From positions 930,001-994,000 of the forward strand of contig OZ237735.1 of the NCBI GenBank assembly GCA_965178125.1: DNA of 64,000 nucleotides, given 5' to 3'. Source of the DNA: Bilabrum cf. latius. Its lineage: Eukaryota. The translations under genes and the position numbers were made by a program. The notes beneath the pieces were generated by a model. The model was not told the DNA's origin. It did no database searches and worked only from the letters and a program-made list of their open reading frames with translations. The stretch's first letter is position 1; each line of letters opens with the position of its first letter. Positions 32,667 through 64,000 of this stretch are shown piece by piece.

Positions 32667-35600
32667 GACGCTTCCGGAAGCTGATGTTCCTGAGCTTATC
32701 GTGATTTCTCCAGAACGTCCTCTTGATACACTACCTGTTTGCATTTTCAGGCCGCCAGAGTTTCCTGATGTTGCATCGCCGCTTGTAACCGTTACTAATC
32801 CGGAATCTCCTGATGTTGATTCACCAGTTATTAGTTGGACTTGACCAGTCGTTCCTGCTAACGTGGTTCCAGTTTTTATTCTTACAGATCCAGAATTCGT
32901 GTTGCCGGAGTTGCCAGTTGAGACTTCTATTTGACCGGATTGACCTCGAGTTGAATCTCCTGTTGACAGTGATACGGAGCCTGAAGTAGCTGATGCGGTG
33001 CTTCCAATGGCTGTTCTAATATCAATGTAGCCGGTGCTTGACCCAATGCCGCTGGTACCGCTTGTAAGTTTTATGGAGCCGCCTTGGTGGACGCTTGAGT
33101 CGGTTTGGCCAGCGGAGAGCAGGATAGATCCCCCAGATCTCGTTTTGGCCTGACCAGCACGTACCTACACCTGACCGGCTTCACCATTGTTTGAAGATCC
33201 AGCTGACAGAGTTACCCAACCTGCATCACCGGATGCTGTATGACCTGTCGCAAGATACACTTGGCCTGAAGTCCCGTGGGAAACAGTACCAGTTGACACC
33301 TGAACTGATCCGCTGCCTGCTCCCGCTGCTGTACTTCCAGTCGAAAGATGAATTGTGCCAGAGAGACCGGTATCCGCAGATCCAGTTTTCAGAGAAATAT
33401 CCCCACTTGATGCAGACGTGCCAGTGACAGCCGGAGATCGAATGTGAACATGCCCAGAGCTGGATGACAGGCTGGCCCCAGACACCAAAGAAAGCAAGCC
33501 TCCAGTTCTGGCTGGTACATTGGAGCCAAGACTATTGCCGGCTTGAATATACATCAGAGCACCAGAGAGCTGCTCTGAAGTACCAGCCACTATGCTCATT
33601 GTACCTGCTCTTCTATCTGCTAGACCTGTGGTGAGCAAAGCGTTGCCACTATTGGAGTTTGATGAACGACCGGTCGAAAACAGGAGGTCTCCAGACGCTT
33701 CAACATCAATTTGGCTGCTTGGTACTGTTGACGCTCCTGACATAACACGAATGGAACCAGACACTCCAAGCGTATTATCACTTGACCTGATAGAAACCAG
33801 TCCTGTCGTACCAGCTTCAACCGTGCCCGAAGCAATTTCGACTCTCCCACTCATCCCTGACACCGTTGACCCTGACAGAACCGATACACTGCCACTGTCA
33901 ATGCTATTAGCTGCCACATTGGCAGACCTCAATTGTACCCAACCAGAGGTCGATACAGACCCAGCGCCAGAAACGATGTCAATGGCGCCCCCAACAGCGG
34001 TGCTGTCAAGGGTGTTGCCGCCTAGTACACGGACCATGGCCCCGTTACCTACCCCTGTTGAGCCAGGCGCGACGTCTACTCGCCCAGCTGAGCCCTACGT
34101 CGCAGATCCAGAGCCCAAGGAGACATCGCCAGAGTCCCCACCGGTTGAAATGCCAGACCCGATCTCAATTCCACCAGATGTGCCAGCCGCCGTGGAGCCG
34201 GACTAGATCACGGTACTTCCAGATGAAGTCACGCTACTGCTTGCAGAAAGAATACTCACATCACCGCTCGTGACAGATCCTTTCCCAGACAGAACAAGTA
34301 TGTTGCCACCTGAACCACTGGTGGAGTCTCCGGCCGAAACTGTAACATCCGCCCCCGCTCCACTGTCAGAGCTACCGGCAGCGATTTGAATAGAGCCTGA
34401 CCTGCCCCCTGAAGCTGCACCCGTTGCTAGATATAAGGTTCCAGCGTTGTCAGTAGCTGTACTTCCAGTGAAAATAGACACGTCGCCGGATTGTCCGGAA
34501 CTGCTGGCATCAGCAGACCGAATCGAGACATGGCCTGATGACGACGATGTACCGCCTCCGGAAGCAAGCGACAGCAACCCTCCACGGCCTTCGGCATGCA
34601 GACTAGCTCCTGCCCTGAGGCGAAGCTGCGCTCCATTACCGCTTGTGGAGCTGCCTGGAATCACATCAATGTCTCCTGCTTGGCCAAGCAACGGGGACCC
34701 AGTCTGCACTCTCACGCTGCCGGATGGCCCTTGCTGGGGGGTACCGGAACCAAGCATAAGCGACCCGCTAGCTGCTTGCTTCACATTCCCTGTCTGAATT
34801 GAAATACTTCCACTAACAACACTGGCAGCGGTTCCTGCAGCAGAAAACATGCGAATCGATCCAGTTATGCCATCACTGCTGCCGCCAGAGAGCAGAGACA
34901 AAACACCTCCATTTTGCGCAGTTCCAGTGGCTGCGCCGGCAGCAATAAATGTCGAAGAGCCTGTACCGCTACTGGAAGGGCCAGGGTTGATCTAGATCGT
35001 TCCAGCTGTACCCGAAGTTGGTGCACCGGTTCGAATCTTGACGTCACCGCTTCTGTACGAGTCACTGGATCCCGTACTGACATACACTGCACCAGAACTA
35101 GCACCCCTACTGTCACCAGTGAAAATGCTGACCGATCCAGACGAAGCTAAAGTTGTAGCCCCGGAATGTAACTCGATTGTGCCACTACCTGATCCTTCGG
35201 ACGAGCCAGACATCACTGCAATAGAGCCTGAGCTTCCTAGTTCCGTGTTTCCAGTCGACAACAGAATCTATCCTGTCTAGCCTTGCGGATTTGCGCTTTG
35301 CGTCCGAAGCAAAATGCTCCCTGTCTCAAACTAGGAGCTGGATCCTGTTAGCACGTCGAAGCTCCCCCCGCGAGAATTCGCTCCTCCTGTGGTACCTGGC
35401 CGCACAACAACATCCCCCCCATTTCCAGAGTCACCGAGTCCAACTTCAATCCGAATCGCTCCACCGGCACCAGCTGTTGCTGCGCCAGAAAACAACGAAA
35501 TAGCGCCAGAGGGTCCACTTGCAGATGTACCAGTTTCTAAAAGCATGTGTCCGCTTGACCCCCCAGGCCCGCTATTCTGCGAGCGAATACGAACGCTTCC

Positions 35601-38600
35601 AGAAGAAGTCTCAAGCGACTTCCCCGAAACTAGCTCGATGGTGCCACCTGCCCTTGTGCGCGCTGAGCCTGCTTCAACATAAACAGGGCCGCCTGAGTTC
35701 TGTCCGGATCCAGTAGCACTGCCGGCAACAATGCTCACACTGCCACCAGATATACCTGTCACGTCGTTAAGGGCACGTGTTGAGCCTGCCTGAATAACAA
35801 CGTCGCCTCCATCTAGAGTTCCATCACCTGAACCAACTGAAATGCTGATGCTACCACCAGATCCCCCAATTCCAGATCCCGAACGAAGCAAAATTTCTCC
35901 GCCACGGCCTCCGAACGAGTTCATACCGTCTCCACTCGATATATCAACAACTCCCCCAGCTGCTTGATTGCCCTGCGTTGATCCGGCAGATATTGAGATA
36001 GAACCGCCAGAATAGTCGGAGAATGGATTCATAGAATCTCCGACTGAAAGCGATATGTTCCCACCTCTACCCTGAGTTCCATCCGCTGTTGAGATGTTCA
36101 CGGCCCCCGTGTCACCAACTGCTGATTTTCCCGTCCGTAGTACGATATTGCCACTCTACCCTCTTAGTCCGCCATCAGATGATAACATTGAGAGAGAACC
36201 AGACTAGAACAGACTGCTCTTTCCACTACGGATAAGGATATCGCCACCGTCATCCCCTTCGGAATACCCTGCGTCCAACGTAACAGATCCACCTTTCTTG
36301 GAGTCAATCGCCGTGACAGGTCCGGCTACAATTGATATGCCCCCACCTCTTGCACCACTTCCAACGGAACCTCCACTACGAATTGTTACCTGGCTGCTGC
36401 GATCAGTTGATGCGCCATCGCCAGAGCGAATACTAATATCTCCAGCGCGAGAGCCACGGCTGGAAATACCAGTTCCAGTTCGAATGCTTATGTTTCCGCT
36501 TGCGCCTCCGAACGACAACCCAGTTTTGATGTCGACATTGCCGGATTCTCCATCGAGGCCAGAGTCGGCCGAAGCCAAAACCACTCGACCACTCGAACCA
36601 ACTATGCTAGAGCCACTTAGAATCGAGGTGTCTCCACCAGAACCCGTCAATGCGATTCCAGCAGCAATCGAGACGTTTCCCCCATATCCAGCAGATTCCC
36701 CAACGGACCGCCCGGCGAGGATCGTCACACCTCCTCCTTCTCGAGCTGAGTCGCCACTAAAAATCTCGACCTGTCCACCAGCGACATCTGCAAGTGTTGA
36801 ACCAACTTGAATTGAAATATTTCCAGGTCTACCAGCCTCGCTGCTTCCAGACGTGACCCGAACATCACCACCCTGTCCACCTTGAATATGAGTGGAGTTA
36901 CCAGCCAGCAGCTCAATTGATCCTCCAGAAGCCATGTAACCGGTCGTGGAACCCGGAGCGATCACGAAATCTCCAGCTGCTCCGCCCCCAGCGTCACCTG
37001 TTCCGACGCTCACAGCCCCGGATGATCCCGTTTCAGAGTTACCTGATCTGATCAACACATCACCAGAGTTGCCATACAGTGTAGGACCTGAGCCTATCGA
37101 AACCATGCCGGACTGGTCATCTCTCCCAGAAGCACCTGTATGTATCTCTACGTCCCCGCTGCTGCTTCGAGAGGAGTCTCCAGATCGAATCGAAACAGAC
37201 CCACCTTTGCTGGCAACAGAACTACCAGCAGCAATCACTGTATCCCCACCGGTACTGGACTCTGAACTCGACGCTGATCCGGCCAATATACTCACTGAGC
37301 CTCCTGTACCCTTGTATCCATCCGAATTTCCGGCAGAAACGAGTACAGAGCCAGAAGTAGCCGAATCTTCACCGGATCCGCCAGCTGCGACCGTAATGGA
37401 GCCAGAGACCCCGAACTACGAATCCCCAGACTTCACGTCAAGACCTCCTGACCCGTCTACAGCTGTTCCCGATCCAATCAGTACAGAGCCAGACTCGGGT
37501 GAAATCGCCGAAATGAGTGAAACATTCCCGCTGCGTTTCTCTATTGATGAACCACTTCTTAGAATAATGTCGCCGCCGTCGCTGGCAACTCCTCTCCCAG
37601 CAACGGCCTCAAAAACACCCCCGGTGTATCCAGCTCCAGCAACAATTCGAACAGCGCCTCCAGCATCAGAAGGTTTTTTAGGCTCCAAAACACTTCCGCC
37701 AGACAGCTCAGCAACACCTGGCTGCCCTTGGCGCACCGAGCCGACCTGGAGGCGCACGCTACCGCTGGATCCTCTGTCAGTGTCTCCAGATGCCACAAAC
37801 GTTGTACCAGTGTTTCCAAACCGAGTCGACCCTGACACTACTGAGACTGCCCCAGAGCTAGACAGTCGGTTCAGTTGATTTGATGTCCCACTTGCAGAGT
37901 GTAACAGCACGTCTCCGGACGTTGATAGTGCGCCGAAGGCCTCACCAGAGTGCATCGTGAGAGCACCGCCAGCCAAAGTGTCTTGGTGGGATGAGCCTGC
38001 GGATACTTTCACCATCCCGCCAACTTGACTGCTCCCCGCCACCACATTCACAGCACCACCTTGTCCACGACTAGACGAAGAGTTGCCGGCATGAACAAAA
38101 AGGGTACCTCCACGGATGTCCGAATCCAAGCTGCCCAGTGCAGAACCAGCGAAGACAGAAACATCTCCTCCAGATGCCTCGTAGCCGTTGCCACCAAGAA
38201 CTTGCACTGAACCGCCAAGTGACTAGATTCCAAGCTGTTCACTTCCACTGCCTGCTGCGAGCATGGCGCTACCTGCAACAGACACTCCACCAGAAGAATC
38301 AGGCCCGCCAACATCAGAGATGGAACCAGCTCGAAGTTCCACACTGCCTGCCTTTCTCCTGCCAGCTCCAGCGGATACGACCACATCACCTGAGGACTCA
38401 AAACCCTCCCCACTCGCAATGTGAACACTACCAGAGCTACCAGCTCTCGCTGGTCCAGACGATACCTCAACTCGACCCGTGCCCTAGCGCGCGCCATCCG
38501 ACCCTGCTGTACTGACGAATGCACGCCCCGAACCTGCTTGCCCTACTCCAGAAATTAGCATTACATCACCACCAACGCCACTTTCGGAAGAGCCACCTTT

Positions 38601-41600
38601 CATGGTAGCTGAGCTACTTTCGTCGGTTGTCGACAAACCAATAGAGGCGCCACCGATGCCGTTCCCGCTCCCGGCTTGCAAGTCGACGGATCCTCCCCTA
38701 ACTCCTCCCGGCCCTGCAGATATCGAAACGCTTGCGCCGACTCCAACTCTAGAGTTTCCTGCTGTCACGGTGACGTTGCCAGGATCCTCAACTGCATTCC
38801 CAGTAGAAAGTCGTAGCCCGCCCGATCCTTCGATTCCACTACCAGTGTCCAGGCTAACTGGTCCACTGCTTGACACAGAGGAAGCCGATGAAATGCGGAC
38901 TCCACCGGAACCCCCTGCTGCATTTCCTGAAACCATCACAGCCGAACCTCCCATGTCTCCTCTGGGTCCTTCCGCGTGCAGTCTAGCCCCTGTACCAGAT
39001 GGCGATGATCCACCTTCGACCACAGCACTGCCAGACCTAGACGCTAGCGAGAATCCACCTCGAACCACAACATTGCCACCATCTGACTGTTTTGATGTTC
39101 CAGCTAGAACGGATACATCTCCAGAGTCTAGAGTTGAGTCCCCAGATCGAACAACAATACCTCCTGACGCACCGCTTCCATTTCCAGATGTGATACTCAA
39201 GCTTCCGGATGGTGCCCCGCGCGAGCTTGCCTCCCCTGATCGGATCTGTACATCTCCTCCTGGCCCAGTTCTGCTGCTTCCAGCTGTCACCTCAACCATC
39301 CCGCCTTGCACTGCAGAACTATTCGAGTTTCCGGATAAAATTCTGATATCGCCTGGTACAACTCGCGAGTGAGCATGACTTGCTCGCCCATCGCCGGCTT
39401 GGAGGGTGATCGAACCAGCTGCGCCTCTTCTTCCAGTAGCAGAGCCCGTCGCTATTTCCAGGCTCCCGGAATCAGCATCCTTGCCGAATGCGTTCCCAGA
39501 AGAAAGAGTGACCTGACCTGTTGTGCTAGCGTTGCTTCCTGTCTGAATACTGAGCTACCCAGTCGAAGCGTTAGCTGCAGAGGCATCTGCCGTTCTAACT
39601 ACCACTGCGCCTGTCGCGTCGTTTGATGGTCCAGATTCAACCAGGACTTCGCCTCCACGCCCCGCGAGCGCCAGTCCGCCCCGAATTGCAACTGCACCTC
39701 CAATGCTCTGATTGGATGGCCCTGTTGATGCACCGCCACGAATGCTCACAGTACCCGCATTTGCAACTGCACTGGCACCACCGGTCAGGAATACGCTAGC
39801 GCTTCGATTCGATAGCGACTTCCCAGCTTCTAGCCGAATGCTTCCAGGGTGTGACGCAGCTCCAGTGCGGATTGATACCGCTCCACTTGAGCCCTTGTTC
39901 GAAGTTGTGTTGCCTGACACAAACGCAATTGAGCCTGTGTGCAAGTATCTACCGCCGACAGTGGATACTACGACGTTTCCACCTGTGCCATTAGACCTTG
40001 ATGGACCTCCCGTGAGCTTGGCGGTCCCACCTAATAGTGTACCGGCTCCGCCAGATACTTCTGCAAGTCCTCCCTGCAGTCCACCTCCGCCACGGATAGC
40101 AACTGCGCCCCCTGACGACACTCCGGATCCGCCGTGCACCGCAACAGATCCGCCAGATGCGTCCTTACTTGACCCTCCCATTACTTCGACCTCCCCTGCA
40201 TGCGTCTTGCCGGACCCACCAACCACTCGCACCGCTCCAGCTACTTCAACTGCATTCCCGGAACCAACTAAAACGTTACCAGTCGATGATGCGTTTGCAG
40301 ATCTCACAGAAACAGAACCGCTAGTACCCACTACCGAACCACCAGAGACGAGCTCGGCATGACCACCTCTGGCATCTGTGGACAGCCCACCAGCGACAAG
40401 TACTGACCCGGCAGACGAACCTGTTCCTGCGTGCCCACCGACTACATGTACGTGACCTGCAGAACCGTTCAAGTGCGCTTCGCCACCGCCAACTCTCACT
40501 GATCCGGCACTTCCACGGAATGAAGAACCTCCTTGCAACTGGACTTCTCCGCCAAAGCCAGACTCTCCGGTACCATTACCAGCATGCATATACAAACCTC
40601 CACTAGCACTGGCAGATCCAGATGAACGCAAATAAATGGACCCTGCATCACCATCGCTTGAGCCATTCCCAGACGAAATGTGAACATTACCACCTGTTCG
40701 CAAGCCAGATGATTTGGAGGCAGGAAGAAGCTTCCCTCCACGAATCCATACATCTCCTGCCTGGACACCTTGGGATGCACCAGCTTCGACCAGCACGTTG
40801 CCCTTCCCTGATGTCGACGTGCCACCGACTACTTCGACTGTACCAGGGTTCCGGGCAGTGCCGGTTGAGATTCGAACAGCACCGCTACCTGACTACGAAT
40901 CGTGCGACTTCAACTCTACTGATCCACTGGATGCTTCTCCTGACGTCGTGTTGCCTGAGACTATTGATACTGAGCCTCCCTGTACGTGGCCAACCCCAGC
41001 TGTAATACCAACTGATCCACCATGCGAATGTCCTGCACCTGGCAGTATCAAGACGTCCCCAGATGTACCATTCGATGACCCTGACGACACAACCACATCC
41101 CCAGATACCTCGCTGCCATTTCCCGATCGAAGTACGAGTTGTCCACTTCTTTGAGTGGTCAATGTAGACTGCGAGGATACAAACGACCCTGAAGTGATGG
41201 ACACGTCCCCAGTAGCGTTTCGCGAATTCGGCAGGTAGGAGAAACGCTTGTGCCTTGACTGCATCGCTGCAACAAGGTCAATCGCAATACGAATCTTGTT
41301 GACCTCGTGAAAATCCTCCAACTTAAACCCGGCTTCATCGAAGCTCATCTCGTCATTAACTGTGATATACTCTGGAAATACCTCGCGTACCTCTTGAGCA
41401 ATTACACCACGAACTGTCCTATCCTCAATACCACGTACCCGTCGCCAGACATCGGTGTACCGATATCGCTTCACTCGTAGCTTCAGCATGCGGTGCATAA
41501 GCTCGTCTTCATCCACAGATACAATGTCTTCCTTGATCCTTCTGTCGGATGGGGAAATCACTTCCACGAGCTCGGCCGGAACGTGAGAGAATATCTTGTC

Positions 41601-44600
41601 GCGTCGTACTCGAAATGGGATCTGGCCAGGCGGTGAGTCTTCGTGGGAGACGCGGTACTCGCCGTTGCTTCCGACGAGCGTGTCAATGTTCCGACCACTC
41701 ATCTACAACTGGCCGTCCTACGCGTTGACTCTAACAGCACCAGATCCTGCAACTTCGATCGAAGAAGAATTCGAGTTTCCAACTCGAACTTGTACGGCAG
41801 CATGGCCCTCATCGGTGCTGCCAGAGCCTTGGATTATGACAGCTCCGGCAAGTCCTGTGGCAGATGTGCCCGCAGCAATGCTTACTGAACCCCCACCGCC
41901 TTTCGTGCCAGCTCCTCCAACTATGTTCACCGATCCTCCCGAGCCGCCGTCACCGCCACTCACCGTGACCGATCCGGGAGTATCAGTTGCCGAACCAGAC
42001 GAAATCGAAACATCTCCTGAGCTCAAAGAGTCAGATTTTGATCGGAGCATAACAGAGCCACTGCTCCTGGCACCTTGCCCAGACTCGAGCAGAATTCCAC
42101 CACCCTATCCCAATTTCTACTGGCCACCGACGAGCTTGATCCGTCCGCCTGACGTTGAATCAGAATAACCTCCAGATACAACCACACCCCCACCGGATTC
42201 ACTGGTGGACGAGCCTGCAGAAATGGACACACTTCCTGCAAGACCATTGGGGGCGTGCCCGGCTGCAATTGCTATGTCACCCCCGGCTCCCAAGCTAGAC
42301 TAGCCTGCCGATACGCGGATGGTACCAGCAGATCCACTTCGTACAGACCTAGTCTTGATGCTCACTGCTCCAGAGGATGCCCCACCACCACTTAGCAGTG
42401 TTAGATCACCTCCTATTCCATTCATGTGTCCGTCGCCGCCTTCAAGTGATACGCGACCCGCCGTTCCATTCAACTCAGTGCTATTGCCACCACGGAGCAA
42501 GACTGCGCCGCCCGCTTTGCCGCCGCTGCCACCTTGCATTGCAGCAGAGCCACCTTGCCCAACCGTAGCTGTCGAATGCCCAGCTTGCAGGGAGATCCCT
42601 CCACCGGTGCGAGCATTGCCAAGGGCGTCGCCAGATCGCAGTTCAACAGCACCGGCACTGCCCATGGCTCCACTGACGTTGCCTGCAGCGATTCGCACTC
42701 GACCAGAATGGGCTGCAGTCAAACGGCTGAATGCCTGCCCTGTGCCAATGTCAAGGTTGCCAGACGACACGCTAGCAACATCATCGATGGGGGCGCTGCC
42801 TGTTTCGATTTGAATCGGCCCCGATTCAGCAGATGAGTGTTGATCTCCGGTGCTAAGCGGGGATCCAGATCGAATTGATACGAGTCCGGCTACTTGAGTG
42901 CTATTTCGACTAGTGAACACTCCTCCCGACAGTATTCGGACCGCACCGGACTAGCCATCTGACCCCAGTCGAGAGTTACCCCCTCGAATTTGAACAGACC
43001 CTGCGACTCCACGCCTGTTTGATCCTGTCTGCAGTTTGATCGACCCTGAAGAAGCCTTGCTTGACGAGAGTTCACCAGATTCCGCAACAATGCTCCCAGT
43101 GCCACCGGAGGATCCTTCCAGAGCTGGCTGAGAACCGAGATGAACAGAGCCTGAATCAGCATACTTGGACCCACCTCCGCCACGTACTACAATGTTTCCA
43201 CCGGGTGACTTAGAGTGCTGGCCGGCGGCTCCGCCTTGCAGCTCAACTTCACTACCTCCAAACTGGCCTCCGGAAGCACCAGCCCGAAGCCTAATCCCAC
43301 CGCCAGCACCTTGCTCACTGGACCCTGATACCAACGAAATTGTACCCGCAGTGCCTTCTAGTGAGGCTGACCCTGTGCGGATCAGAGCGCTGCCGGTGCT
43401 TGTCTTGTGATCAGCAGTCTGCGGGGCGGGAGCGGTCTGTAGCACGACACTTCCGGATTCAAATCCCCTTCCAAGACCACTGGTGATTGAGACAGTCCCA
43501 CCTATACCAAGCCCCTTGCCAACATCACCACCTCGAATGCTTACGCTTCCAGCCGAGGCTGCAGCCGGAACTGACCCAAAGGCTGCAAACTGGGGGTCAA
43601 TGCCAGACACTGCGCCTCCACTGACTGAGACTGTACCGCCTGAATGGCCTGTGGGAGTTCCAGGCTACGCAATACCTGCTCCTGCAGAAATCTCAATGCT
43701 GCCGCCGCTAGTACTCTTGGTTGCCAAGCTAGGGGGAACGACTGCGTCGCCAGCCGCAAGGCTGACACCTGCTCCGGTGTGTGCGACTGAGGCCCCCGCT
43801 CGAATATTGAGGCCTCCTGCAGGCTTCAAGTGCTATGCTTCAGCCATTGGTACCGCCCCACCGTTGGCTACCTATGCAAAGATGGGAGATGATCCAGTCA
43901 CAATGTTGATGGCTCCAGAGCCACGAGCACCCGCTGCCCCGGAACCCAACGTGACGCTTCCAGAAGATCCAAGCTTGCCAGCGTTCGATGATCTTATGAC
44001 AACTCGGCCAGACTACCCATTTCGACTGCCACCAGATCGAATTTCAACGGAACCGCCACCATCGCCTGTATCAATTCCAGGCGATGTGTCATCTCCTGCA
44101 TGAATGGCCACAGACCCACCCCCAAGTGCCCCAGGCCCTGCCGCAAGAGATACTGAGCCAGATCTTCCATGAGCAGACTCTCCTGATCCAAACACTGCGC
44201 TGCCGGAGGGTCCTCCGGAGAGCCCGGATCTTACGTCCACGTCACCCGACGCTTGAGTCGTTGTCTGGACGGCACTCCCAGATGAAATTCGAACTAGGCC
44301 CGAGCTTTGGGAAAGTTTTCCCTCAGCAGAACCTGATACAATGTCTACGGAACCACCACGACCGCCTCCACGCACGCCTCCAGCAACCACTTTGATTGCT
44401 CCGCCTGATGCAGTGGCCAACCTCGAGGCCTGGCTGCCAGCGAGTATCTCTACACCACCCGCATCGGTTCGCGATGAAATAGACGGTGACCTGGCATGAC
44501 CTGCAGCGATTCTGACCCCTCCAGCTTTGCCATGCGTGCGAGACTGCGAGTCGCCGGCAGAGAGCAACATACTCGCACCAGAAGAAACTGCTGAACTGCC

Positions 44601-50083: not shown

Positions 50084-50431
50084 CTTGAGTCGCCTTCTAA
50101 TCGTCTGCAGAGCAACGGGAAGTTTGCGACTACTTTGGTGGTGCCACTTGCTCTCCCGGGCTTGGCTCGACGTCTGATACAGGTTCGAATCGATTTATCT
50201 CGCACAACCAATGGACGAAGTCAACTAGAGCAAATATTTTGTAGTATGTACTTGAAATGTCCTTATCTTATCTGCTGTTTGCACTAATGCCCTCAACGCA
50301 CACCTGCTCGGTCAAGAATCTGTAATAAACCAATTCACACGCTACTTTATGCAAGGAATCCTTGTCGGAATCTTGTGGCTCTGGGGCCGCTTAAACGTGT
50401 GAAATCACATGTTTGCGCAAAGAAATACTCC

Positions 50432-52465: not shown

Positions 52466-52526
52466 TGCGGCGCGGTGCTGCTAAATTTGATATCATGCAT
52501 CCGGGAATACATTCATTGTATTACTA
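52466..52526. promoter_or_regulatory. Very short divergent intergenic region (putative bidirectional promoter) between the ankyrin and LRR genes
   Basis: Head-to-head ATGs 61 bp apart with an AT-rich spacer; depends on the start codons chosen. Confidence 0.4.
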
Positions 52527-55500
52527 ATGTCACTGCTAGCTGCCTCCTCTAGGGGATCACTGGCTCTCGATCGGTCCAGACGGGTGAGAATAGTCGTCGT
52601 GCAACGGCTACCGCACCAGCACCATTCCTGTACGCACAAGGGCTGCGGTCCAACATTTTTGATCCCGCAGGGCTTAGATTCTATTGATAGGATTGCTGAC
52701 TATATCACCTCGGCGAACTTTAGCTTCAACAAGCTCCAGCAGCTCCCAGTAGGACTCTAGGACTGTGGCAGCCTTGAGCGTCTAAATGTGTCCCACAACC
52801 GACTCAAGTCTCTTCTTGCTGACAATTCCCCGGTTTTGACGTATTTACCGCGGCTTCGCCACCTCGATGTGTCTGGCAATCCCTCGTTGACTGGATTCCG
52901 GCTTCTTGCGGGCCTAACTCGTTCGGGTGGAAGCGCTGGAGCTCTGGAAGAGTTGTGGTGCGCTAGATGCGGCATTGGTCAAGAACCAGATGTTCACCGT
53001 AGTATTTCACATCTCTTGAAGTCCCTCTCGGCTCTGTCTGTTCTAGTTGTCGCTGACAACCCCGCGACAAGCTCAAGCCGAGCAGCTGCAGTCGATACAG
53101 CCTCAGTCATACTCTGCTCTGCTCCACAAATCCGAAAGCTGTGCGTAAGCTTTAGCGTACCTGGTACAAGCATACCTTTGGGCTCGAGTGCGGTAGCCGA
53201 TGCGACCAGAGTAGGCAAGCGTGAACCTGCAGCAGCAGCCGATGGCTGGATCAGCTCTGGCTTGGTCACAGTGACCGCTCGAATGCTATCTGCAGCCAAG
53301 GAACATCATGCACGTTTGATTGATAGCTCTGCACCAGATGGTACTGTACGAAGTGGGCTAAAGAAGCCGAGGAGTCGGTCCACTGTGCCATCAGTGTCGT
53401 CGAACCGAGCACCAGGTGCGTCTGCCGGCCAGAAGCAACAGGCCGAGCGGCAGGGTATAGTCTCACATTCCGGGCCAAAGACCACCCATGGACGGAAGCG
53501 AGAAGCAATATTGTAGCTCTCTGCGGCCGCAGTGGGGCAGTCGCCCGGCAGTGGACTACCACCCGCACACTCCGGGGGCTTGCCCGCAGCAGCAGAGTCC
53601 GCCCGGGTGGATGGTACGGAGCAAAGTGCAGGCAGAGATGATGCCCACGGGCCAGCCGGTGCCGAGATGCCAGCGCTAGCGATAGGTTATCAATCTTCAT
53701 CGACGGTGCGACCTTATCCCAAGCACCGGTACCGACCAGCTTCCACCGCAGAAGCGGTTCGAGTCGCCGCTAAGCAGACATTGCGAGAACTGAGCGCTGA
53801 TTCGAGCGCACCGGGCGCGGCACCCGGCAGCGAGATGGAGTCAGATGGCCGCCGATCCTTGGGCATACTTGGTTCGGTTGAGGCGGCACTAGCAGGCGGC
53901 TCATCCGCCGCAAAGCAATACAATGCGCGCCGCGCAAGGGCTGCCGCTGGACCCGCTCGGGCCCGCCGAGGCCCCAAGTCCGACTGCCTCGCACTTGCCA
54001 TTGCTGAGCTGGCCAAGCTGCAGCCACCCCCGCTGCCAAATGCATCAATGCCAGTCTCAGCTCCTAGCAAGCCAGCCAAACTGGTTCGGTTCGATGTTGC
54101 TGACTCAGAAGGATTCCGCGTAGCGACAGCAGGCGAAGACGGCACCATTCGGGCATTCGTGGAGGCAGCCACTGGACCCCATCTTGCCGGCAAATCCACG
54201 CACCATCGATCACCAGCCCCCGCGTCTCGAGAGATACAGTGTGTATCGGCAGAAATTGACCGCCAGCTGTCAGTGGCAGCCCACAAATCCGGTCTGATAT
54301 CAGATGTGGGCTCTCAGGGCCTCCGGCAGCTCAGCGCATCCGTGCCCTGGCCTGGAACTGCTTGTACCCCTGGAGTGGTGATGCAAAGGTACTTGCAGGC
54401 AGTCGGCGCGCTGCGGACTTCCAGGGCGGGAATAGCCTTGCGATGGACGGCCTCAGCACCCGGACGGCCGGCAATCGTGGCGCGGTTCTCCGGCCTGGGG
54501 CGTGGGTCAGTGGATGATCCCAGGTCTGGCTCATTGCTACTTCGCTCAGACGGTAGCGGTCAAGGCGAAGAGTTCTCAGTTGCTGGTACGAAGGCTTGTC
54601 GTGTCTGCCGGTGGGAACGAGGGGCTAAGGAACCTCAAGCATGCGTCGCAAGCCTACCGGGAGTACTATCTGGTAGCAGAAGGATGTTCTTGCTCAGCCC
54701 GGAGCTCGTCATGATGCACGACACCAGATCCTCCATTACAAGCGCATTTGTGTTTGGGTGGACGCGGGCACCGGCGCAGAGCTCCAGTGATGGCGCACAA
54801 AGCGATGACTGCGATCCTGTCCGGGAGAAGGGGCACGTGCACGCAGATATTGCACCTCTAGTTAGCAGCTGTGTGCGTGTAACGTCTGGATGGCAGGGCT
54901 GGAGTGCCGATTAGATCAAACTCAGCCCTGGCGAGGCTTCTGCCGTGTTTGTGGACGCGTGGGTGCAAAGCGTTGCGAGGCGACAGGCTGCGGCACAGGG
55001 AGCGCGACCCGCGAAGCTGGACCAGAGGCGTTCATCGGCTCGTAGTCTCAGTCCAATCTCTGTTCCAGGCAAGCGTCCAGTGAATGAACCGTTGCAGACA
55101 CGCGGCGAATAGCCGGTACGAAGACGTCGCGCTCAAGATTCGGGACCTGCTGCAGCAGCATCCCGCATTCGAGCGTATCGTAAAAAGCAAACGAGTATCG
55201 AGAAGCCGCCCCCGCGGAAAGGCCTTGCGTTTGGGCGGGCTGCAGAGGGGACACAAGGAGTGGCACCGTCTCGCAGACCAGCGGGCAGTGGCAGCCGGAG
55301 CGGGACTCGAGTGGCTGCCCGCACTTTTGGGGCGCGATCCCGGTAGGCTGCGCCGCACGGAAATCGTGCACCGCGAACCAGCAAGTCTCCCGGTCATTCT
55401 CAGGCAGCGGCCCCGGTGGGATCAACCTCGGCTGACGACGACATGGAACAGCTAGCTCGTATTCGTGGTGCTGTGCAGGGGTTGTTGAGCGGCCTGGGCT

Positions 55501-55664
55501 TGGGCCATGAGCAGCAAGCGAATCGTGATTCAGAGACTGCAGCTCCGATCAGTGGCTTTGGCTCAGACGGCTCTGCTTCACGGGTAGCATCAAAGGGGGC
55601 TGCAGGCGGTGCTGCGGCTGCTGCATTAGCCAAAGCAAAAGCACTTCTAGCGCGAGACTCATGA
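52527..55664 (+). CDS. N-terminal leucine-rich-repeat protein (~1,015 aa); probable 87-nt intron at 52584..52670
   Basis: ANFSFNKLQQLPVGL*DCGSLERLNVSHNRLKSL, LRHLDVSGNP, LEELWCARCGI, LSVLVVADNP. One frame with TAGs at 52758, 53514, 54912, 55110 and 55344, ending in TGA. Removing the GTGAGA..CCGCAG intron gives LDRSRRGLDSI. Confidence 0.8.
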
Positions 55665-55864
55665 GCTGGTTGATTTCATAATATTGCCTTTCTTGTCACC
55701 TTGAATTATTCGCAAAGACTCTGCCAAATCCATGAGTGTGTAAGCTTTCTTAAATAATATAGCAAGTATTGGACGTGTGTGGCAGGCACCCAAACACTGC
55801 ATCTGATGCAATCCAACCACAAGCGGACCACTCGCAGTGACACGGCGGATCATAACAGTAGCAA

Positions 55865-57404
55865 TCAGAACAGCGCCGTGTCATCATCACTGGCCGACGG
55901 AGCCGAGCCAAGCAGCAGTCCCTTCGGTAGCTTGACGCTAGGCTTCGGACTCGCCGCTTGCTCAAAAATGCCGCTCTGCTTCCTGTGGGCACCATCACCC
56001 GGGGCCGATCCCTCGCCGTCAGGGGCCGCCCGAATGCTGTTCTCTTCGCGCTCAGCCTCAAGGCGCTTGGCCTCCGCCTCAGCCTCGGCCTGAGCATCCG
56101 CAGCGCTAGCCTGCGCAAGAGTTGGCAAGACAGGGGCGGACGGCCGGAACAGCTGCTGCTGCAGGGTCACAGCAGCAGAGGCAGTCGCGCCGGTGGCCGC
56201 TCCGGCGGCACCACCAGCAGCCGCCCCAGAACCCGGCATGTCTGCGGCAGCACCGTCTTCGATAGCGAGCACGCGATCTTGCTGCCCCTCGTAGTCGGGA
56301 TCCATGGGCTTTTTCCGCCAGAGCTCCACCTCGTGCTGCTTAAAGTACCTGCGGTCGCCTTCGTCCACCAGCACCAGGTTCAGGAAGTAGCGGACCGAGT
56401 ACCGGTTTGTCTGGTCGTCGATAGTCGGAGTCAGGTTGTAAGCATCGAGGTACAGGCGAATAGGGATCTGCTCGTTCTTCACAGGGGATCCATCCATGAC
56501 CTCGAACTTGGCCAGCGTCTCAGACTCGTTGTACACTGTGCGGTCCACCTCGCACTGCTCCCTCCGGATGATGGCGATCTCGGCGTACTTGAGGCGCAGC
56601 CGAACCAGCAAGAAATACAAGTTGCCCATCACGACGTCCTACAGATGGTAGCGGTGCTTGTCGTACTCGAACTCGATGTGCAGGTACTCCTCGATGCCGA
56701 CCTCCATCCTGATCTTGGAAGGCTCCTCCTTGCCGGGAGCTCCGAAGCGAGACTGAATGAAATGCAGCTGCTTTTCGTGCTTTGAAGGAGAAAACCCCGT
56801 GCTTTCGGTTCTGACTCTGAGGTAGTACCTGCACCGAACGTTGATCCCATTGTAGGACTCGTGCGGGCGCTGCACTTCTTCGCCGAACTTTACCTTGAAC
56901 TTGTGGTCCTCACCGCCCCTCAACGTCCCTCCAGACGCAAGTTGTAACACACCCCGTGTGAATTCTTGGGCCTAGGCTCTGTCATAATACTTTTCTGCGA
57001 CTCGACAAAGGGGCACATGGGAAGAAGGCACGAAGCTCATAGGTGCACGGCACCCTTGAGTTACGCTCGGCAGTTGTTTCCAATACTCTCACCAACTACA
57101 CCAATCAGCTCGCATGTAATCCCTGTGTGTTCGAGCGTCTGTGACGCGGGCAATCTCAGGGTGACATCGGCTTCGATCGGTTCGTCGTTGTGAAACACGC
57201 AGCACTCAACCTTGCCGCCTTCGTCTCCCAGATCAAAGCTTCGTTTCTCTCTGATCGACTCATCAATGAACTTCATGGTAATGAGAACCTCTGTACCACC
57301 GAACAGAAACGCCTGGGATACGATGAGAGGAAGGGTTGCAGCAACCACGAATCGAGCAAGGGTTTCTGTTCGATTACATCATTAAAGGACCGGAATCTTA
57401 CCAT
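55865..57404 (-). CDS. VPS26: Retromer subunit VPS26; join(57404..57402, 57312..57093, 56994..55865)
   Basis: LEHTGI, HESYNGINVRCRYYLRV, IRMEVGIEEYLHIEFEYDKHRYHL*DVVMGNLYFLLVR, ESETLAKFEVMDGSPVKNEQIPIRLYL and YSVRYFLNLVLVDEGDRRYFKQHEVELWR are hallmark VPS26 motifs. In-frame TAGs at 56974..56972 and 56641..56639; ends in TGA. Exon 1 is only ATG followed by GTAAG. Confidence 0.95.
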
Positions 57405-57665
57405 CTCGATGAAAACGTAATAGATAGATAAGTGAAATCTTGACCGCAATACTGCTCAACCGCTGTGTAGCGAAGCTGGCAGTGCTAAAGGTCGCCGCAG
57501 CGCAGTTTTGCTAAAACCGCTCGTCACATGCCGAACGCCTCGCCGGCGGGCGCTAAACCTCGCTGCAGAGTTACAAAATGCTGCCTGGTCGACAATGTAT
57601 GTTTTTTTAAGATAACATTGTATGTGGTGGCCGCGGCTCGCACCGGAGAGTGGGTTTTTCTAGGT
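57405..57665. promoter_or_regulatory. Divergent intergenic region (putative bidirectional promoter) between VPS26 and the GT41 gene
   Basis: Head-to-head genes 261 bp apart. Confidence 0.4.
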
Positions 57666-60600
57666 ATGAAGGCATTCTGTTGTACGGTTCTACTCGTGTG
57701 TGTGTTTCCCAGTGTTCGCACTGAAGCTGGATTAGATTGGCTCGCGAAGCTCGAGGGCAACTTAGCCACCAATAGAGTATCTGCTGACCACGCAATCAGG
57801 ATTCTGCAGGAGCTGGGGCAGCCTGCAACGGCATGCACAGCCAGTTTGGATCTGCTCGGGAGAATGCTACTGAGGAAGAACATGCACCTCGAGGCATCCA
57901 AAGCGGCAGCGCTTGCAATCGATCATGGTAACTGCAGCAAGAATTGGTGTCCTGGCGACCCAACGAGCATTGCTGAGACGCACTGCGATTCATGCCGGTG
58001 CGGTCCAGCCTATTCGAGCCCTGCGATACTGGCTTCTTCGCTGCGTACGATCGGTTTATCGCTGATTTTCGATTCTAAATCAATAATGATGCAGTTTGGC
58101 ACGTGGGGAACTGCGGCGTCTTGCTTAATTCGGCAATGTCCTATGACATCACGGCTGGAGCGCATGGTGTAGACAGCTGGACTCCTCATTGCAACAGGCA
58201 CGCAGCGAGAAAAAGATTCGCTAGCTCTTGATTTGTATGTGTTTGCCTCTCAAGCAGTGCTCCAGTCGGTGGGCGCTCGAGGGCCGTCCGTTTGGACCTG
58301 CGTGGAAGCCCTGGACCTGCTGGACGCATTCCGGGCCGGGCTGCTGCAGTCTGAGCATCTGCGAGGCCGAGAGGCGAGCCAAATGCATTCATTATTCTGG
58401 AAGGTAGCAGCAGCGTGTCAGTCTAGTATTGATGCCCATTGCACGGGTCGCTCAAGCGTCTAGTAGACTAGTCGGGTTGGGCGGGCACTACACAATCGCA
58501 CGGCTCAGGATTCGCGCTCTGCATGGCTCGCTCGAATCCGAGAGGATCTGGCCGATTCCATCCAGGCAAGTCTAGAGCGCTTGGGTGCCTCGTTGCAAGA
58601 CCCTGCTACAATGCTTGCCGCTGCCAGCAAGTCTGAGCTGCCTGGGTGGAAGCCCTATTCCCTCGAGTCGAGGCAACACCACGCAGCCGGAGGGTTCGGC
58701 GACGAGGAGGTGGAGCCGGACGAATACGCTGCAGTCTACGGATACCAGGCGAGCGGGTGGAAGCGGTGCTGGATTGGAATGGCACAGGCGTCGCTTTCGC
58801 TCTTCAAGATGGGCAGGTGGGCAGATGCCGAAGGGGGTGGCAGCGATGCTCAACACCTTTACGCAGCTGCAGCGATTGCATGGCCTAGGGCCTCGGAGCC
58901 CTGGATCAACCTCGCGGCGCTGTACCAGCGATTCAACATTCTCTACCCTGCAAGGCGCATATACATCGGTTTGCTATCGTCCGCATGTGTTGGCAAAGCC
59001 AGCGCCAGCTCGTTCTCTCCTGCACGGTCTGGTCGACCAATCAACAGCGGCACAGCTGGCTTGGAGCCTTGGAAGCCATTCGGTATAGCGTGTCAAGCAG
59101 AATTACTGTCCCAGGTAATTGGTAAACAGGGTATGTGTCGGGTTATCGTCGGTTAGCAGACGTGCGACTTGTCGATTTCAACGCGTGTAGATGCGCCTCT
59201 GGTGGAGTCAGCTGTTCCAGCCGAGGACAAAGTCTATGGGAAGTGCATTTGCATGCAGGCTGAGCGGGCCGCGGACGTGCTGCTCAATCTTGCGACCATG
59301 GCAGAGGTCTCGGACAACTTTGCGGGCGATTCGAGCTGGCTTGCAGCTGCGGGCTCGGCCATCATTCAGGGGCGGAGGACGTGTGGTAGCGCGTCTCCGG
59401 CAGCGTCTTTCCGCAAGACTGATGCATTGGACTTTGTAGCCAGTGAGCACCGACGTCGTTTGTTCAAAGGAGACCTTAGAGGACGATCCGCGCTAGAGGT
59501 TGCGCTGCGCCGCGATGCTCGCGATGCGTGCCAGGGCACAGGTGGCGCAACCGCAACGGAATCACACCTGACGGCATTCAGCAGCGTTGGCATGCGGGGT
59601 GTGCAGCTTGATGTTCGTCGCTGCATTGCATCACGAGAATCTCGCAGGAAGTCGACCAGTGCAATGCACAATCACAGCGGGTACCAAGCTAGGGTGTTGT
59701 AGGCAGCACCTTCCCGGCGCTTGCGGATGCCTCTGCACGTGGCATACCTATCGTGGGACTTCAGGGACCACCCTACTGCGCACATGATAGAAGGTGCCGT
59801 GCAAGGTCATGCGAGCCGAGGTCTTGCTGGCACTGAGGCAGTAAGGCCCATTCTGGTCCAATACGGACCTATGGATGGCAGCAGTACCGCGAAACGACTT
59901 CAGATGATTTCAGAGTCGAATGGAGAATGGCTGGATGCCACTGAGCTATCAGATGAGGAAGTGATTGAGAGTCTCGACAAGTTGGGCGTGCACGTTGCGA
60001 TTGACTTGCAGGGGCCAACCTTTGGGCAAAGGCAATCGCTGTTCGCGCGCAGGATTGCAGCGGTGCAGGCAGTATATCTCATTTTCCCTGGAACTACTGG
60101 ATTAGATCAGATTGATTTCCATCTTGTAGACAAAACCGTGGTGCATGCCGAGCGCGACACGCCACATTATCTTGAGAAGATGGTATACTTGCCCCGGACC
60201 TATCAGATCAACCACTTCGTCCTCGGAGAGAGGCAGCAGCGCATGCCAGACACCGAGAGCCCAAAGTGTCGGGTCAGCGAGACAGGCAGCGTACCCGAAG
60301 GTGTGCTTGATTGGGTCCGAGCGTGCAAACGACGCGGGGCACCAGCTGAAGGCTGTGGCACAGAAGCCGGCTTGATCGAACGTGTACAAAGCAAGCACGG
60401 GTTCGGTGTTGCCGCAGCTTCCTCGCGGTATATTGACAACCATGCGCACGACTTGCTCGAGTTCTTGCTTGAGCGAGTCTGTACTCAAGCACGGAGCCGT
60501 CAGCGAGGTCGACCGTGGCGACTGGGGATGGTGCGCCTTGCACGCAAGGTTGACGAGATGAGGCGCAAGGAAGGACTGCCAGCTTCCGACAGGGTGGTGT

Positions 60601-61511
60601 TCGTGAACTTTAACAAGGTTACCAAGATCGGCCCTGGCACTGTGGAGCTGCTCGCTGGGTTGCTCCGGGTCACACCAGGAAGCGTTGCGTGGCTCCTGTC
60701 CTCCAAGCAGCAAGGGTACGAGGCGAGCATCCGACTGGAGTTTGCCGCCAGGGGCGTCAGTCCCCATCGGCTTGTCATTGCTTAGAGGCAAGCAAAACAG
60801 GAGCATTTAGTCCGGCTAGGGCTCGCAGATGTATTTGTTGATAGCGTGGATGGGTACGGTGCGCACTCCACAGCAGCGGATGCGTTGGCGGCTGGTGTGC
60901 CACTCGTCACATACAACGGAGGTTCTTTCCCCGAACGAGTTGGTTGCTCCATTCTCAAGTCATATTTTCGATTGAAGCGCTCCCACCGACACGAAAAGTC
61001 GAGGACGCTGCCTTTGGTTGGGTGCACCGCTGGACTTCGGGAGATGCACGCGGTGGCGGCCCGACTTGTGGTAGGACGCAGACCTCCTCCTACAGACCAT
61101 TCAACAGGAGTAGCCCTGCCAGTTGCCCCGCTGCGTGCCGCAGCCTCTGTCTCATTGGCCATGCACCTGCGAGCAGTGTCTTTGGTGACCCTGAGCGAGC
61201 AGCTTGGGCTGGTAGCACCAGGCGTAGCGGCTTCTGAGCTGAAACCAAACTATCTGGGGCACCTGTGCGCCTCAAGTTGCAACATTGCGACGGATTCAAG
61301 CACCGACGGGAGTTTAGTCGCGGAAAGTAGCCCTGGGCTCAATGAAATGGACAGCCGGGCTGGCATGCTGCAGTGGACACGCAGGTCCGTCGACCTGGAA
61401 CGGGCCTACCATGCGATGTGGGAACTGCACCAGCTGTCAGATGAGCCAGGGGAGGAACGGCAAGGTAGTTCCATGAAGCGCATGCACATTATTTTGGGCT
61501 TGACCGCGTAA
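57666..61511 (+). CDS. OGT-like glycosyltransferase family 41 protein (1,281 aa) with TPR-like helical segments and a possible signal peptide
   Basis: LHVAYLSWDFRDHPTAHM, VAIDLQGPT, LEKMVYLPRTYQINH, FVNFNKVTKI and EHLVRLGLADVFVDS..YGAHSTAADALAAGVPLVT..G.SFPERVG match the OGT catalytic lobes. Six pieces in one frame are joined by TAGs at 58170, 58461, 58464, 59154, 59700 and 60783; ends in TAA. Confidence 0.85.
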
Positions 61512-61673
61512 ACGGCCCCTCTCCAGAAGAGTGCGGGGCTGCCCTCATCACATGCTGTGTTCCCGTGTGCGGGGGAGAAAGATGGGCATTCAACACAGCG
61601 AATAATGAGAGGATTCGCACGCCGATGGTATCAATTTAATGCAAATCTATTTCTTAATAGCGCGTGTCTTCGC

Positions 61674-64000
61674 ATGAGCCGCACAACCACAATGATTGGG
61701 CTCAGAGGTACGCCGAGCACTAGCCGGCTACAGAGCATTTTACGTGCAGCCCAGCACTATCCTTTGTCATATCGCTCTGCTTCTCAGACCACTCATTAGT
61801 TTAGAGGTATCCCTAGCATGAGCAGAGTATTGTCTGTTGGAAGGGAGATGTGCTTGCAGCATCTTCAATCGTCAAAAAGCAACTAGCAGCGGATCAAATA
61901 GAACTTGGAGCAAACTGTGTCATCGCTGCTGCATGAGATGAGAAGGCGACTACTCGAGAAGTCGGATGGTGGTCGGGAAGCGAAGCCTCGGCTCCAACAC
62001 ATCGTGGCTGTCCTTGACATGGCGACAACGATTGCAAACGACGCAGGTCTGGGTTCTCTGCTGACCGAAGACTCATCTGCAGTAGCCATCGATGCGCTAT
62101 GCTTGGAGGGATCTCCTAGGGGAGAACACATTGCAACCAATGTTTTGTTCTAGTTTTTTCCAGAGCCACCATCGCATCAGCTGCCCGAAGAGGATCTTGC
62201 AGCTCTTGCTGTTCGAGTTGCTGCTGGCCTGCGATTAGCTCTCAACACGGCATTTCGCCTGAAACAGTTAGAATCTTTTGGTCAACCTGGTCATATATTT
62301 GAGGTGGACCCCACTGAAGCCCTGCAAGGACCCATGGGGGGCTTCGGGCCGTGGAGAAACGGGGCGTACTTTGACGCCATTCGTCTGTCTCCCAGCGGTG
62401 GCACCCGTGTCTGGACTCGCTGGTGCAGCGCCACAGAAACTTCCATCGTAGCAGCACGGACAAAACAGCACATGGACGGTTCTCGGGACGGCTCACCTGA
62501 CTTTGCTACGGTGGGCACACGGACAGCGGATGTGACAAGTTCAGGACGGGTATCGCGTGCAGCTGGTGCCAAACCAAGGCTATCAGCTGGTCTGCAGGCT
62601 GCTATTGGGGTGGGTCCATTGAACTTAGTTGGGGGTTCGCTAGGGGTGTCAATAGAGCTCATTCAAAAGCAAAGGAGGCGCCAGAGCGTAACTGAGCGAG
62701 CGAAGCGGCTGTTAGACAGCGACGACAAGCTCGTTGGAGACTCGCGAAGGTCGCAGGAGCGCATGATCGATGCAAGGCGGAGAGTTGTAAATTCGGGCGA
62801 CCTTCGCTCCGCGCTTGCGCTGCTTGCCTTGGAGCTGCACTGGGCGTTTGCAGTTGCTGCTGGATTTGCTGAGCAAGGCGGTCGCTCCGAGGAGGCCGCC
62901 TCCTTGCAGAGCCTCGCGAGAAGGAGCCGCAACCTGGGCGCGCATGATTCGTCCAAGAGCGGCAAAGTTGCTTCAAAAGTCACAAACGACGACATTCTTT
63001 GGGAATCTATGGGTGATGGGTCCCCAGATGCCCCGGCTATTCACTGGTCGTCAATCTTGCAAAGCATCGATCGATCCGTTCCAAGTGACCATGCACAGAC
63101 CGCTCATGTAGAACCGCTGGAGCGTGCAGAGGCACTTAGCATAGCTGAAACTGCCGTGGCGGTGCTTCGTGTCCTCCAGGAGGACACTGCAGCCGAAGGA
63201 GTCATCAACATGGAGCTTCGCAGGACCAACTCTTTGACCCCAAAGCTCGCTAGCGAACTCGTGCACGTGCTTGTGCACAAGAATGATGCCGAGTAGGCAT
63301 CCGCAGTTGTCGACTGGCTTGCCCGCAGTGGCGCACTTTTGCACCCTCATGCTCTGGTTTAGATCATGCGGTCCCTTTGCAAAGATCATAGCTACCAGAG
63401 AGCTGTTCAGATTGGTCTGGTGGCTCTCCGACTGCTGCACTCTGACGAGAGTGGGCTCCGTGTGTACGAGAACAGGATTGCATCTGAGATCTTAAATTCA
63501 TTGATTCGAAAGATGCAACGTGACCACTTGGCTTGGATCCGAGGAATTGGACCTAGCACTGGGCTTTATTCGGCCGTTGTATCCGGGCACGTTGTGCGTG
63601 GAAGCGAACAAGTCGAGTAGGATGATACAGAAGATGAGGACGGCCATAGTGGTAGCAGGACAGAAGAAGATGTGCCACAGTCGCTAGTTCTTTCTGGTTT
63701 TGGTGCTGACAGTATCCGAAGAAATACGAGCTTGCGACGGCTTCCCCGAGCAGGCGAAGTTACGTGCGACGCACGATCGCTGTCGGTTGTTGAAGAGGCG
63801 GCATTTGAGATCATACGAAAAACGGCCCTCAACGACATGTTGTCTAGTGACGTCTTCTTTGCAGCCGTGATGAAGTTCTTTGTGGGCATATCGAGGCCCT
63901 CGCTCGCATTGGCTGCGTTCGAGCAGTCGCTGTGCAGCACTGAGCCGCCGTCCACTTCGATGGTGCAAGCCTTGGCTCTCGCGTCGTCTGCGTGTGGAGT
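61674..64000 (+). CDS. Hypothetical helical-repeat (PPR-like) protein, possibly organelle-targeted; runs off the right edge
   Basis: One frame is open to the window end if TAG is sense (61797, 61884, 61899, 62151, 63294, 63360, 63618). The N-terminus is Arg/Ser-rich with no acidic residues. PPR-like segments: IMRSLCKDHSYQRAVQIG, LYSAVVSGHV, FAAVMKFFVGISRPSLALAAFEQ. The product call is tentative. Confidence 0.6.

Follow-up and report, generated by a model that had tools for sequence, protein, structure and literature searches.

The window analysed here comprises 64,000 nucleotides (nt) of contig OZ237735.1, with coordinates counted from its first letter, and six genes on both strands, spanning 33165-64000, carry TAG codons within their reading frames. 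Very probably UAG is a sense codon in the nuclear genetic code of this genome, with glutamine as its most probable meaning, while UAA and UGA are kept as stops, which is the assignment of NCBI table 15. Strong support for a sense reading of TAG comes from gene-length frames, from Pfam domains that run across TAGs, from intron-less contigs in which the TAGs are kept, and from TAG positions shared with relatives. That TAA is not a sense codon is supported by its complete absence beside 54 in-frame TAGs at a CAA share of 39%, and by the location of the sole TAA, which stands where the homologs of the GT41 glycosyltransferase gene and the frame of a close relative end. Glutamine as the meaning of UAG is supported by comparisons with close relatives together with a calibrated self-alignment test.

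Reading Frames Crossed by TAG

The window consists of two parts: positions 1 to about 32,800 hold a tandem array at 70% GC, and the remainder has a GC content of 55–60%. The six genes are a giant gene, which includes the array, an ankyrin-repeat gene (ANK), a leucine-rich-repeat gene (LRR), the genes of the retromer subunit VPS26 and of GT41, and a gene for a helical protein. In their 9,675 codons TAG occurs in frame 54 times by the gene models, against 55 in the raw frames, while TAA and TGA do not occur at all, exactly as the first-pass annotation, made from the letters of this DNA, had counted. Gene models built on splice joints also return its partition (giant gene 30, ANK 4, LRR 5, VPS26 2, GT41 6, helical gene 7), every coordinate having been checked as an in-frame TAG. 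Stop-to-stop frames with TAG left open give the same total with 29 TAGs in the main exon of the giant gene and 5 in ANK, and with 5, 2, 6, and 7 in the other genes; the giant gene gains one because the TAG at 49588-49590 sits in a 5' exon, and ANK loses one because the TAG at 52483 is upstream of the transcript contig start at 52346. The TAG-TAG pair reported earlier is found at 58461-58466, and the motifs that had been quoted from the translations (YHLXDVVMG, GQVXVRAG, GGIXIRTG, TGXILL, and TGXLSI, with X for TAG) are all present.

For stop-to-stop frames the absence of internal TAA and TGA holds by construction, and the evidential weight lies in frames that fill whole genes. The VPS26 and GT41 frames run from the start to the C-terminus of the family, and the frames of LRR and ANK take up their transcript contigs almost entirely, leaving 48 and 126 nt at the 3' ends, respectively. 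The minus-strand frame of the giant gene stays open for 16,410 codons (49232 to 3, array included) if TAG is read through, while a TAG stop would break up the non-array portion of this frame into about 15 pieces. Read in the two other frames, the DNA of the six genes contains 347 TGA, 81 TAA, and 233 TAG, and from these out-of-frame densities about 40 TAA and about 174 TGA would be expected in frame. Pfam domains are recognized in the TAG-containing frames of four genes: Vps26 (2.5e-65), Glyco_transf_41 (4e-38), Ank_2 (1.1e-14), and Peptidase_S74 (2.4e-12, in the giant gene). TAG makes up 15% (54/356) of the putative glutamine codons.

The window is present in full in the public runs X1–X4. 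Contigs of four public runs (X5–X8, from three studies) were compared with positions 44101-64000, and all contig pieces listed are identical to the window letter for letter. Six of the eight joints found in X5, X7, and X8 are canonical GT..AG introns with GTGAG..CAG ends, namely, two in VPS26 (98 and 89 nt), one in LRR (87 nt), and three at the giant gene's 5' end (92, 116, and 316 nt), which agrees with the intron range of 87–316 nt given earlier; X6 carries the LRR intron unspliced. Intron-less contigs with no differing letter cover eight of the TAGs: both in VPS26, all five in LRR, and that at 49588-49590 in the giant gene. Editing and splicing-out are therefore excluded at those eight sites, and the removal of TAGs from messages, named in the first-pass annotation as a finding that would overturn its proposal, was not seen there. 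The joints 48153 to 51225 and 56521 to 56657 were rejected as introns, having non-canonical ends and short sides (21–32 letters), and are taken to stem from a different copy of the gene or from a different organism.

Identity of the Encoded Amino Acid

Close relatives of several of these proteins are found in the protein database. For VPS26 they are P0004 with 98% identity and P0002 and P0003 with 90%, every other match being at most 56% identical, while GT41 is tiled by a relative's fragments P0123–P0126 (83–89% identity), all of which lie on one 47-kb contig. Fragments P0123 and P0125 end exactly at the TAG residues X497 and X679 of the window GT41, and P0150, 94% identical to the giant protein, spans its residues 2481–2749 exactly, which are the 269 residues between the TAG residues X2480 and X2750. 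Thus at four window TAG sites the open reading frame (ORF) of a relative breaks too. Since the relatives' ORFs presumably break at TAG, a glutamine in a relative would stand for a real CAA or CAG codon, and TAG positions common to the relatives would make the reassignment older than their split.

Six window TAG sites are read through by relatives, and at four of them the residue is Q (VPS26 X10 and X121; GT41 X169 and X1040), at X10 and X121 in two and three relatives, respectively, one of which is 98% identical. The relatives' ORFs show three extra breaks, and in all three cases the window codon is CAG. Altogether the comparisons of TAG with a sense codon among close relatives give Gln or CAG in 7 of 9 and K, E, or L in none, at a background Gln share of about 3%, so the earlier assignment of UAG as a probable glutamine codon is supported by this comparison and by the test described below.

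In the self-alignment test the diverged repeats of the giant protein were aligned to one another and the residues opposite TAG were scored; for the controls, 29 true residues were replaced by X ahead of the alignment. The scores for TAG were 0.0 for K, −0.1 for Q, −0.4 for E, −3.3 for S, and −13.6 for L. Masked true Gln gave the same pattern as TAG, with K first and Q second in 8/8 replicates; masked Ser was called Ser in 5/8 and masked Thr was called Thr in 6/8, while for masked Leu the call was M or F, Leu coming only second or third. According to these data the self-alignment fits Gln, rules out Leu, and disfavours Ser; the case against Leu had first been made from the polar positions that TAG occupies, and the Leu score is in line with it.

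Terminators

The genes of ANK, LRR, and VPS26 end in TGA and that of GT41 ends in TAA, as had been noted before, and the tally of terminal codons that had been proposed as a check finds TAG at none of these four gene ends. The VPS26 TGA coincides with the end of the relative P0002, and the GT41 TAA coincides with the end of P0124. The GT41 protein carries the motif AYHAMW 34 residues before the TAA, and a like motif lies 18–33 residues from the C-terminus in 11 of 22 distant GT41 homologs. Transcript-like contigs end past the TGA by 48 nt in LRR, 126 nt in ANK, and 89–115 nt in VPS26. CAA accounts for 118 of the 302 CAR codons (39%) at a GC content of third codon positions (GC3) of 0.46–0.71, and therefore GC bias does not account for the missing TAA.

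Alternative Explanations

Several observations weigh against the reading of UAG as a glutamine codon or limit the evidence for it. The scan of the 64-kb window for tRNA genes found none, and an Rfam scan of the window likewise gave no matches. The X5, X7, and X8 contigs, which come from two studies, are only guessed to be RNA, and that the relatives' ORF breaks are TAG codons is presumed from the fragment ends. The self-alignment cannot tell Gln apart from Lys, Glu, Arg, or His, and true Gln is recovered by a naive-Bayes context model in no more than 8% of draws, so that this model serves solely for the exclusion of Leu, Ile, Val, and Gly. The distant VPS26 columns at the two TAG sites hold N in 73 and Q in 3 of 117 sequences and K in 75 and Q in 13 of 117, and the distant GT41 column X1040 holds P in 13 of 22. 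The TAG-TAG pair faces S and W in an 84%-identical GT41 relative with identical flanks (GRSSV..TSRVG), where TCG and TGG are each one middle base from TAG; this may reflect either relaxed constraint or something site-specific. Finally, only four gene ends were tallied, so UAG may still terminate occasionally.

These observations bear first on the proposal that UAG is a sense codon for Lys, Glu, Ser, Leu, or Trp, which is considered unlikely. The distant-homolog columns with their N, K, and P, the S and W opposite the TAG-TAG pair, and the likelihood among the giant protein's repeats, where K is level with Q, can be cited for it, and codes in which UAG means Leu, Ser, or Glu are described (PMC11687900). 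However, the distant columns disagree with one another at variable positions, so that Gln is not singled out but no single alternative is backed either, while in close relatives Q or CAG faces the codon in most comparisons and K, E, and L in none; Leu is excluded and Ser disfavoured by the self-alignment. The inspection of conserved columns, suggested earlier as a possible refutation of Gln, thus favours it among close relatives (Q at 4/6 read-through sites) and fails to do so among distant ones.

A dual meaning of UAG, as a sense codon inside genes and, as in Condylostoma or Blastocrithidia, a context-dependent terminator at some gene ends, is improbable to a similar degree. Dual-meaning codes exist (PMC5304391), and the absence of terminal UAG rests on four gene ends; on the other hand, none of these ends is TAG, the base after in-frame TAG is unbiased (G 14, C 9, A 14, and T 17), and two dedicated stops are available.

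The ordinary UAR-to-Gln code (NCBI table 6), under which UAA would also be Gln and would be missing by composition or small sample, is very unlikely. It is the commonest nuclear variant according to PMC5304391 and PMC11687900, and the GT41 frame and the helical frame that follows it are in phase with one TAA between them and covered by a single X5 contig. However, were TAA used like CAA, the probability of zero TAA beside 54 TAGs would be P = 2.4e-12, and the sole in-phase TAA stands where the relative's ORF P0124 ends and, as described above, just past a motif that homologs carry close to the C-terminus. The X7 and X8 contigs stop 71–101 nt past this TAA, which is a weak hint in the same direction, and the GT41 and helical frames are interpreted as two adjacent genes of a compact genome.

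The suggestion that the TAGs are untranslated, belonging to pseudogenes, assembly errors, edited RNA, or unrecognised introns, is hardly credible, since the frames are interrupted by TAG only and never by TAA or TGA (pseudogenes are excluded because the other two stop codons are wholly absent in frame), there is no differing letter among the contigs of four runs (three studies), the TAGs persist in intron-less contigs, relatives with 84–94% identity have TAG positions in common with the window, and Pfam domains run across the TAGs.

Mechanism, Affinity, and Known Codes

By analogy with known codes, the reading of UAG as Gln with UAA and UGA as stops would require a tRNA-Gln(CUA) that descends from tRNA-Gln(CUG) and decodes UAG; a suppressor with anticodon UUA would be lacking and UAA hence spared, and eRF1 would no longer recognize UAG efficiently, with recognition of UAA and UGA kept. 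The eRF1 change would be expected in its N-domain, for which PMC5304391 lists the motifs GTS, NIKS, and YxCxxxF; no eRF1 gene lies in the window.

The affinity of the genome was approached through its proteins. In the VPS26 tree the clade of the window gene sits on a branch of 1.77 substitutions and is joined only to another long branch, a scan of metagenomes for VPS26 gave 58 loci, whose full-length identity does not exceed about 50% in any case, and the protein atlas gave no taxonomic signal. The best named VPS26 matches are ochrophytes, from which oomycetes, green algae, and insects differ by no more than a few points of identity. When a stretch of the giant protein with 11 TAGs was used as the query of an S74 search among representative proteins, 454 matches were obtained at E ≤ 0.001; the only close one was the fragment P0158 (95%), located between TAG sites, and the named S74 relatives among ten looked up came without exception from oomycetes, namely, Aphanomyces euteiches, A. 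astaci, and Phytophthora infestans (35–40% identity). Together the S74 and VPS26 matches may be taken as a weak pointer to stramenopiles.

The assignment of UAG to Gln with UAA and UGA as stops is already known from a few other lineages. In Iotanema spirale (Fornicata) it was described by Panek et al. in 2017 (PMC5304391). That case resembles the present one in being non-ciliate and in using UAG as a minority Gln codon (about 8% there and 15% here), but UAA is the predominant stop there, while TGA is found at 3/4 gene ends here, and the published material is a transcriptome only, while here a 64-kb genomic contig of 55–60% GC is available. An Iotanema origin of the window is a poor fit on stop usage.

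The same reassignment of UAG alone was reported for Protocruzia tuzeti as well as for two lineages of phyllopharyngeans (McGowan et al. 2024, PMC11687900), where UAA and UGA are still stops. In these ciliates UAA serves as the stop most often and UGA least often (1.7–13.1% of genes), at 27–54% GC, by the values of that source. The window differs from the phyllopharyngean ciliates in its TGA at 3/4 ends, its GC content of 55–60%, its introns of 87–316 nt, and its at least six genes on one contig, and it does not show the macronuclear features of ciliates as that source gives them, which is a compositional comparison and not a phylogeny. The earlier remark that this genome does not look like that of a ciliate accords with its GC content, introns, and terminators.

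In UAR-to-Gln codes, reported from some ciliates, ulvophytes, hexamitin diplomonads, oxymonads, and Amoeboaphelidium protococcarum (PMC5304391, PMC11687900, and PMC6299283), UAG is also Gln, presumably through a mutated tRNA-Gln, but UAA is Gln as well, while no in-frame TAA is present here. In Amoeboaphelidium both TAG and TAA mean Gln (PMC6299283 and PMC5304391) and the genomes have about 40% GC (PMC10608142); an aphelid origin was rejected by this value against 55–60% here, and no named Amoeboaphelidium protein is among the VPS26 matches.

Other decoupled codes listed in PMC11687900, namely, UAG as Leu in the rhizarian exLh and in a phyllopharyngean, UAG as Ser in Scotinosphaera, and UAA as Lys with UAG as Glu in the ciliate PL0344, share with the window a reassigned UAG that UAA does not follow in the same way. 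They differ in the amino acid, since Leu is excluded here, Ser is disfavoured, and the relatives show Gln. Code 15 with TAG as Gln is also reported from crAss-like phages (PMC9523058), which are bacteriophages, whereas the spliceosomal introns and the retromer VPS26 of the window mark a eukaryotic nuclear genome. The list of decoupled codes in the first-pass annotation (Iotanema, a rhizarian, and some ciliates) is slightly short, as PMC11687900 adds Protocruzia tuzeti, the two phyllopharyngean Gln origins, and Scotinosphaera; with these additional origins the type of code is therefore less rare than had been implied.

Literature searches turned up no report of UAG-to-Gln in a GC-rich non-ciliate or in a stramenopile, their incomplete coverage leaving this absence unproven, and no nuclear stop reassignment in stramenopiles. 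It is tentatively proposed, at a little less than an even balance, that the window represents an unreported independent origin of the code with UAG as Gln and UAA and UGA as stops, in a GC-rich, compact-genomed, non-ciliate clade, possibly of stramenopiles, with TGA as the main terminator. This clade has at least three sampled members with protein identities of 98%, about 90%, and about 84%, which share TAG positions.

Codes that split UAG from UAA are rare and bear on how eRF1 and suppressor tRNAs discriminate between the two codons. The UAG-only cases described in the cited sources are ciliates or three isolated protist or algal lineages, with UAA as the main stop where usage is given. Here a GC-rich lineage with UGA at most gene ends is represented by related taxa sharing TAG sites, with public genomic contigs and transcript-like data. 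If its origin is independent, it would provide a new test case for the order of events, gain of tRNA-Gln(CUA) versus change of eRF1, and for the influence of GC content on which stop codon is captured. On the practical side, standard gene callers fragment such genes, GT41 being represented in the database by four fragments and the giant gene by pieces, and the proteome is mis-annotated wherever table 1 or 11 is used.

The Giant Gene and Its Tandem Array

The start codon of the giant gene is placed at 50083 or 50059. The protein has a signal-peptide-like start and two Cys-rich modules of a CxxC...CxWC-like pattern; it exceeds 16,500 codons, more than 16,400 of which are made up of Gly/Ser-rich short repeats numbering in the thousands, and the internal Peptidase_S74 domain is of the intramolecular chaperone type. 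With the whole protein as a homolog query only 2 matches were obtained, the search being swamped by low-complexity words.

Neighbouring copies in the array are 99.2–99.9% alike in most bins of 1,500 nt. The array has a GC3 of 0.80 versus 0.46 in the rest of the gene and strong strand skews (GC skew −0.33 and AT skew +0.37); TAG is absent from it, and of its 11,054 codons just 8 are for Gln. The array has the look of a very recent expansion whose codon bias is unlike that of its own gene. The 600-nt units are missed by Tandem Repeats Finder, whose longest period is 500.

Features of the Window and Neighbouring Genes

Table 1: Genes and array of the window, with the basis of each model, terminators, and in-frame TAG positions.
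Feature	Position	Strand	Basis	Stop codon	In-frame TAGs
Giant gene	3..50083, off left window edge	-	Open frame, splice joints, Pfam		30, all within 33165-49590
Giant gene exons	50083..49971, 49654..49524, 49407..49237, 49144..3	-	Three 5' introns as joints in X5		
Tandem array inside giant gene	1..32800	-	600-nt (200-aa) units, some 690-nt variants		none
Ankyrin-repeat gene	50432..52315	-	Ank_2 E=1.1e-14; X5 contig 50306-52346 with 0 differing letters	TGA 50432-50434	52252, 51436, 51292, 50848
LRR-containing gene	52491..55664; intron 52584-52670 (87 nt, GT..AG)	+	LRR_4/LRR_8 matches weak and under the Pfam cut-offs; X5 and X8 both show the joint	TGA 55662-55664	52758, 53514, 54912, 55110, 55344
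VPS26 (retromer) gene	55865..57404; exons 57404..57402, 57312..57093, 56994..55865	-	Vps26 E=2.5e-65; joints of 98 nt (X5, X7, X8) and 89 nt (X7, X8)	TGA 55865-55867	56974, 56641
GT41 (OGT/SPINDLY-like) glycosyltransferase gene	57666..61511	+	Glyco_transf_41 E=4e-38; P0123-P0126 tile gene	TAA 61509-61511	58170, 58461, 58464, 59154, 59700, 60783
Helical protein gene, no known family	61512..63998, off right edge	+	829-codon frame open if TAG read through		61797, 61884, 61899, 62151, 63294, 63360, 63618

The ATG of ANK at 52315 was chosen from the contig start at 52346. The helical protein, earlier labelled as PPR-like, is of no known family and gave no Pfam match; its first three TAGs may lie in the 5' untranslated region, and an X5 contig (57587-64000) covers the gene with no differing letter. 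In VPS26 the ATG is formed by the last three bases of exon 1, which is followed by the 89-nt intron (57313-57404 region), and the N-terminus MAFLFGG... fits the family, and matches the relative P0002, only once spliced. The X5 contig over LRR (52670-55712) also has no differing letter, and only about 38 nt separate the ends of the LRR and VPS26 transcript contigs (55712 and 55750), which converge here, a spacing that suggests a very compact genome. In addition, X5, X7, and X8 contigs with loose ends at about 56490-56714 contain a second, different VPS26-like sequence whose match is limited to the best-conserved part of the gene and which belongs either to a paralogue or to another eukaryote in the same samples.

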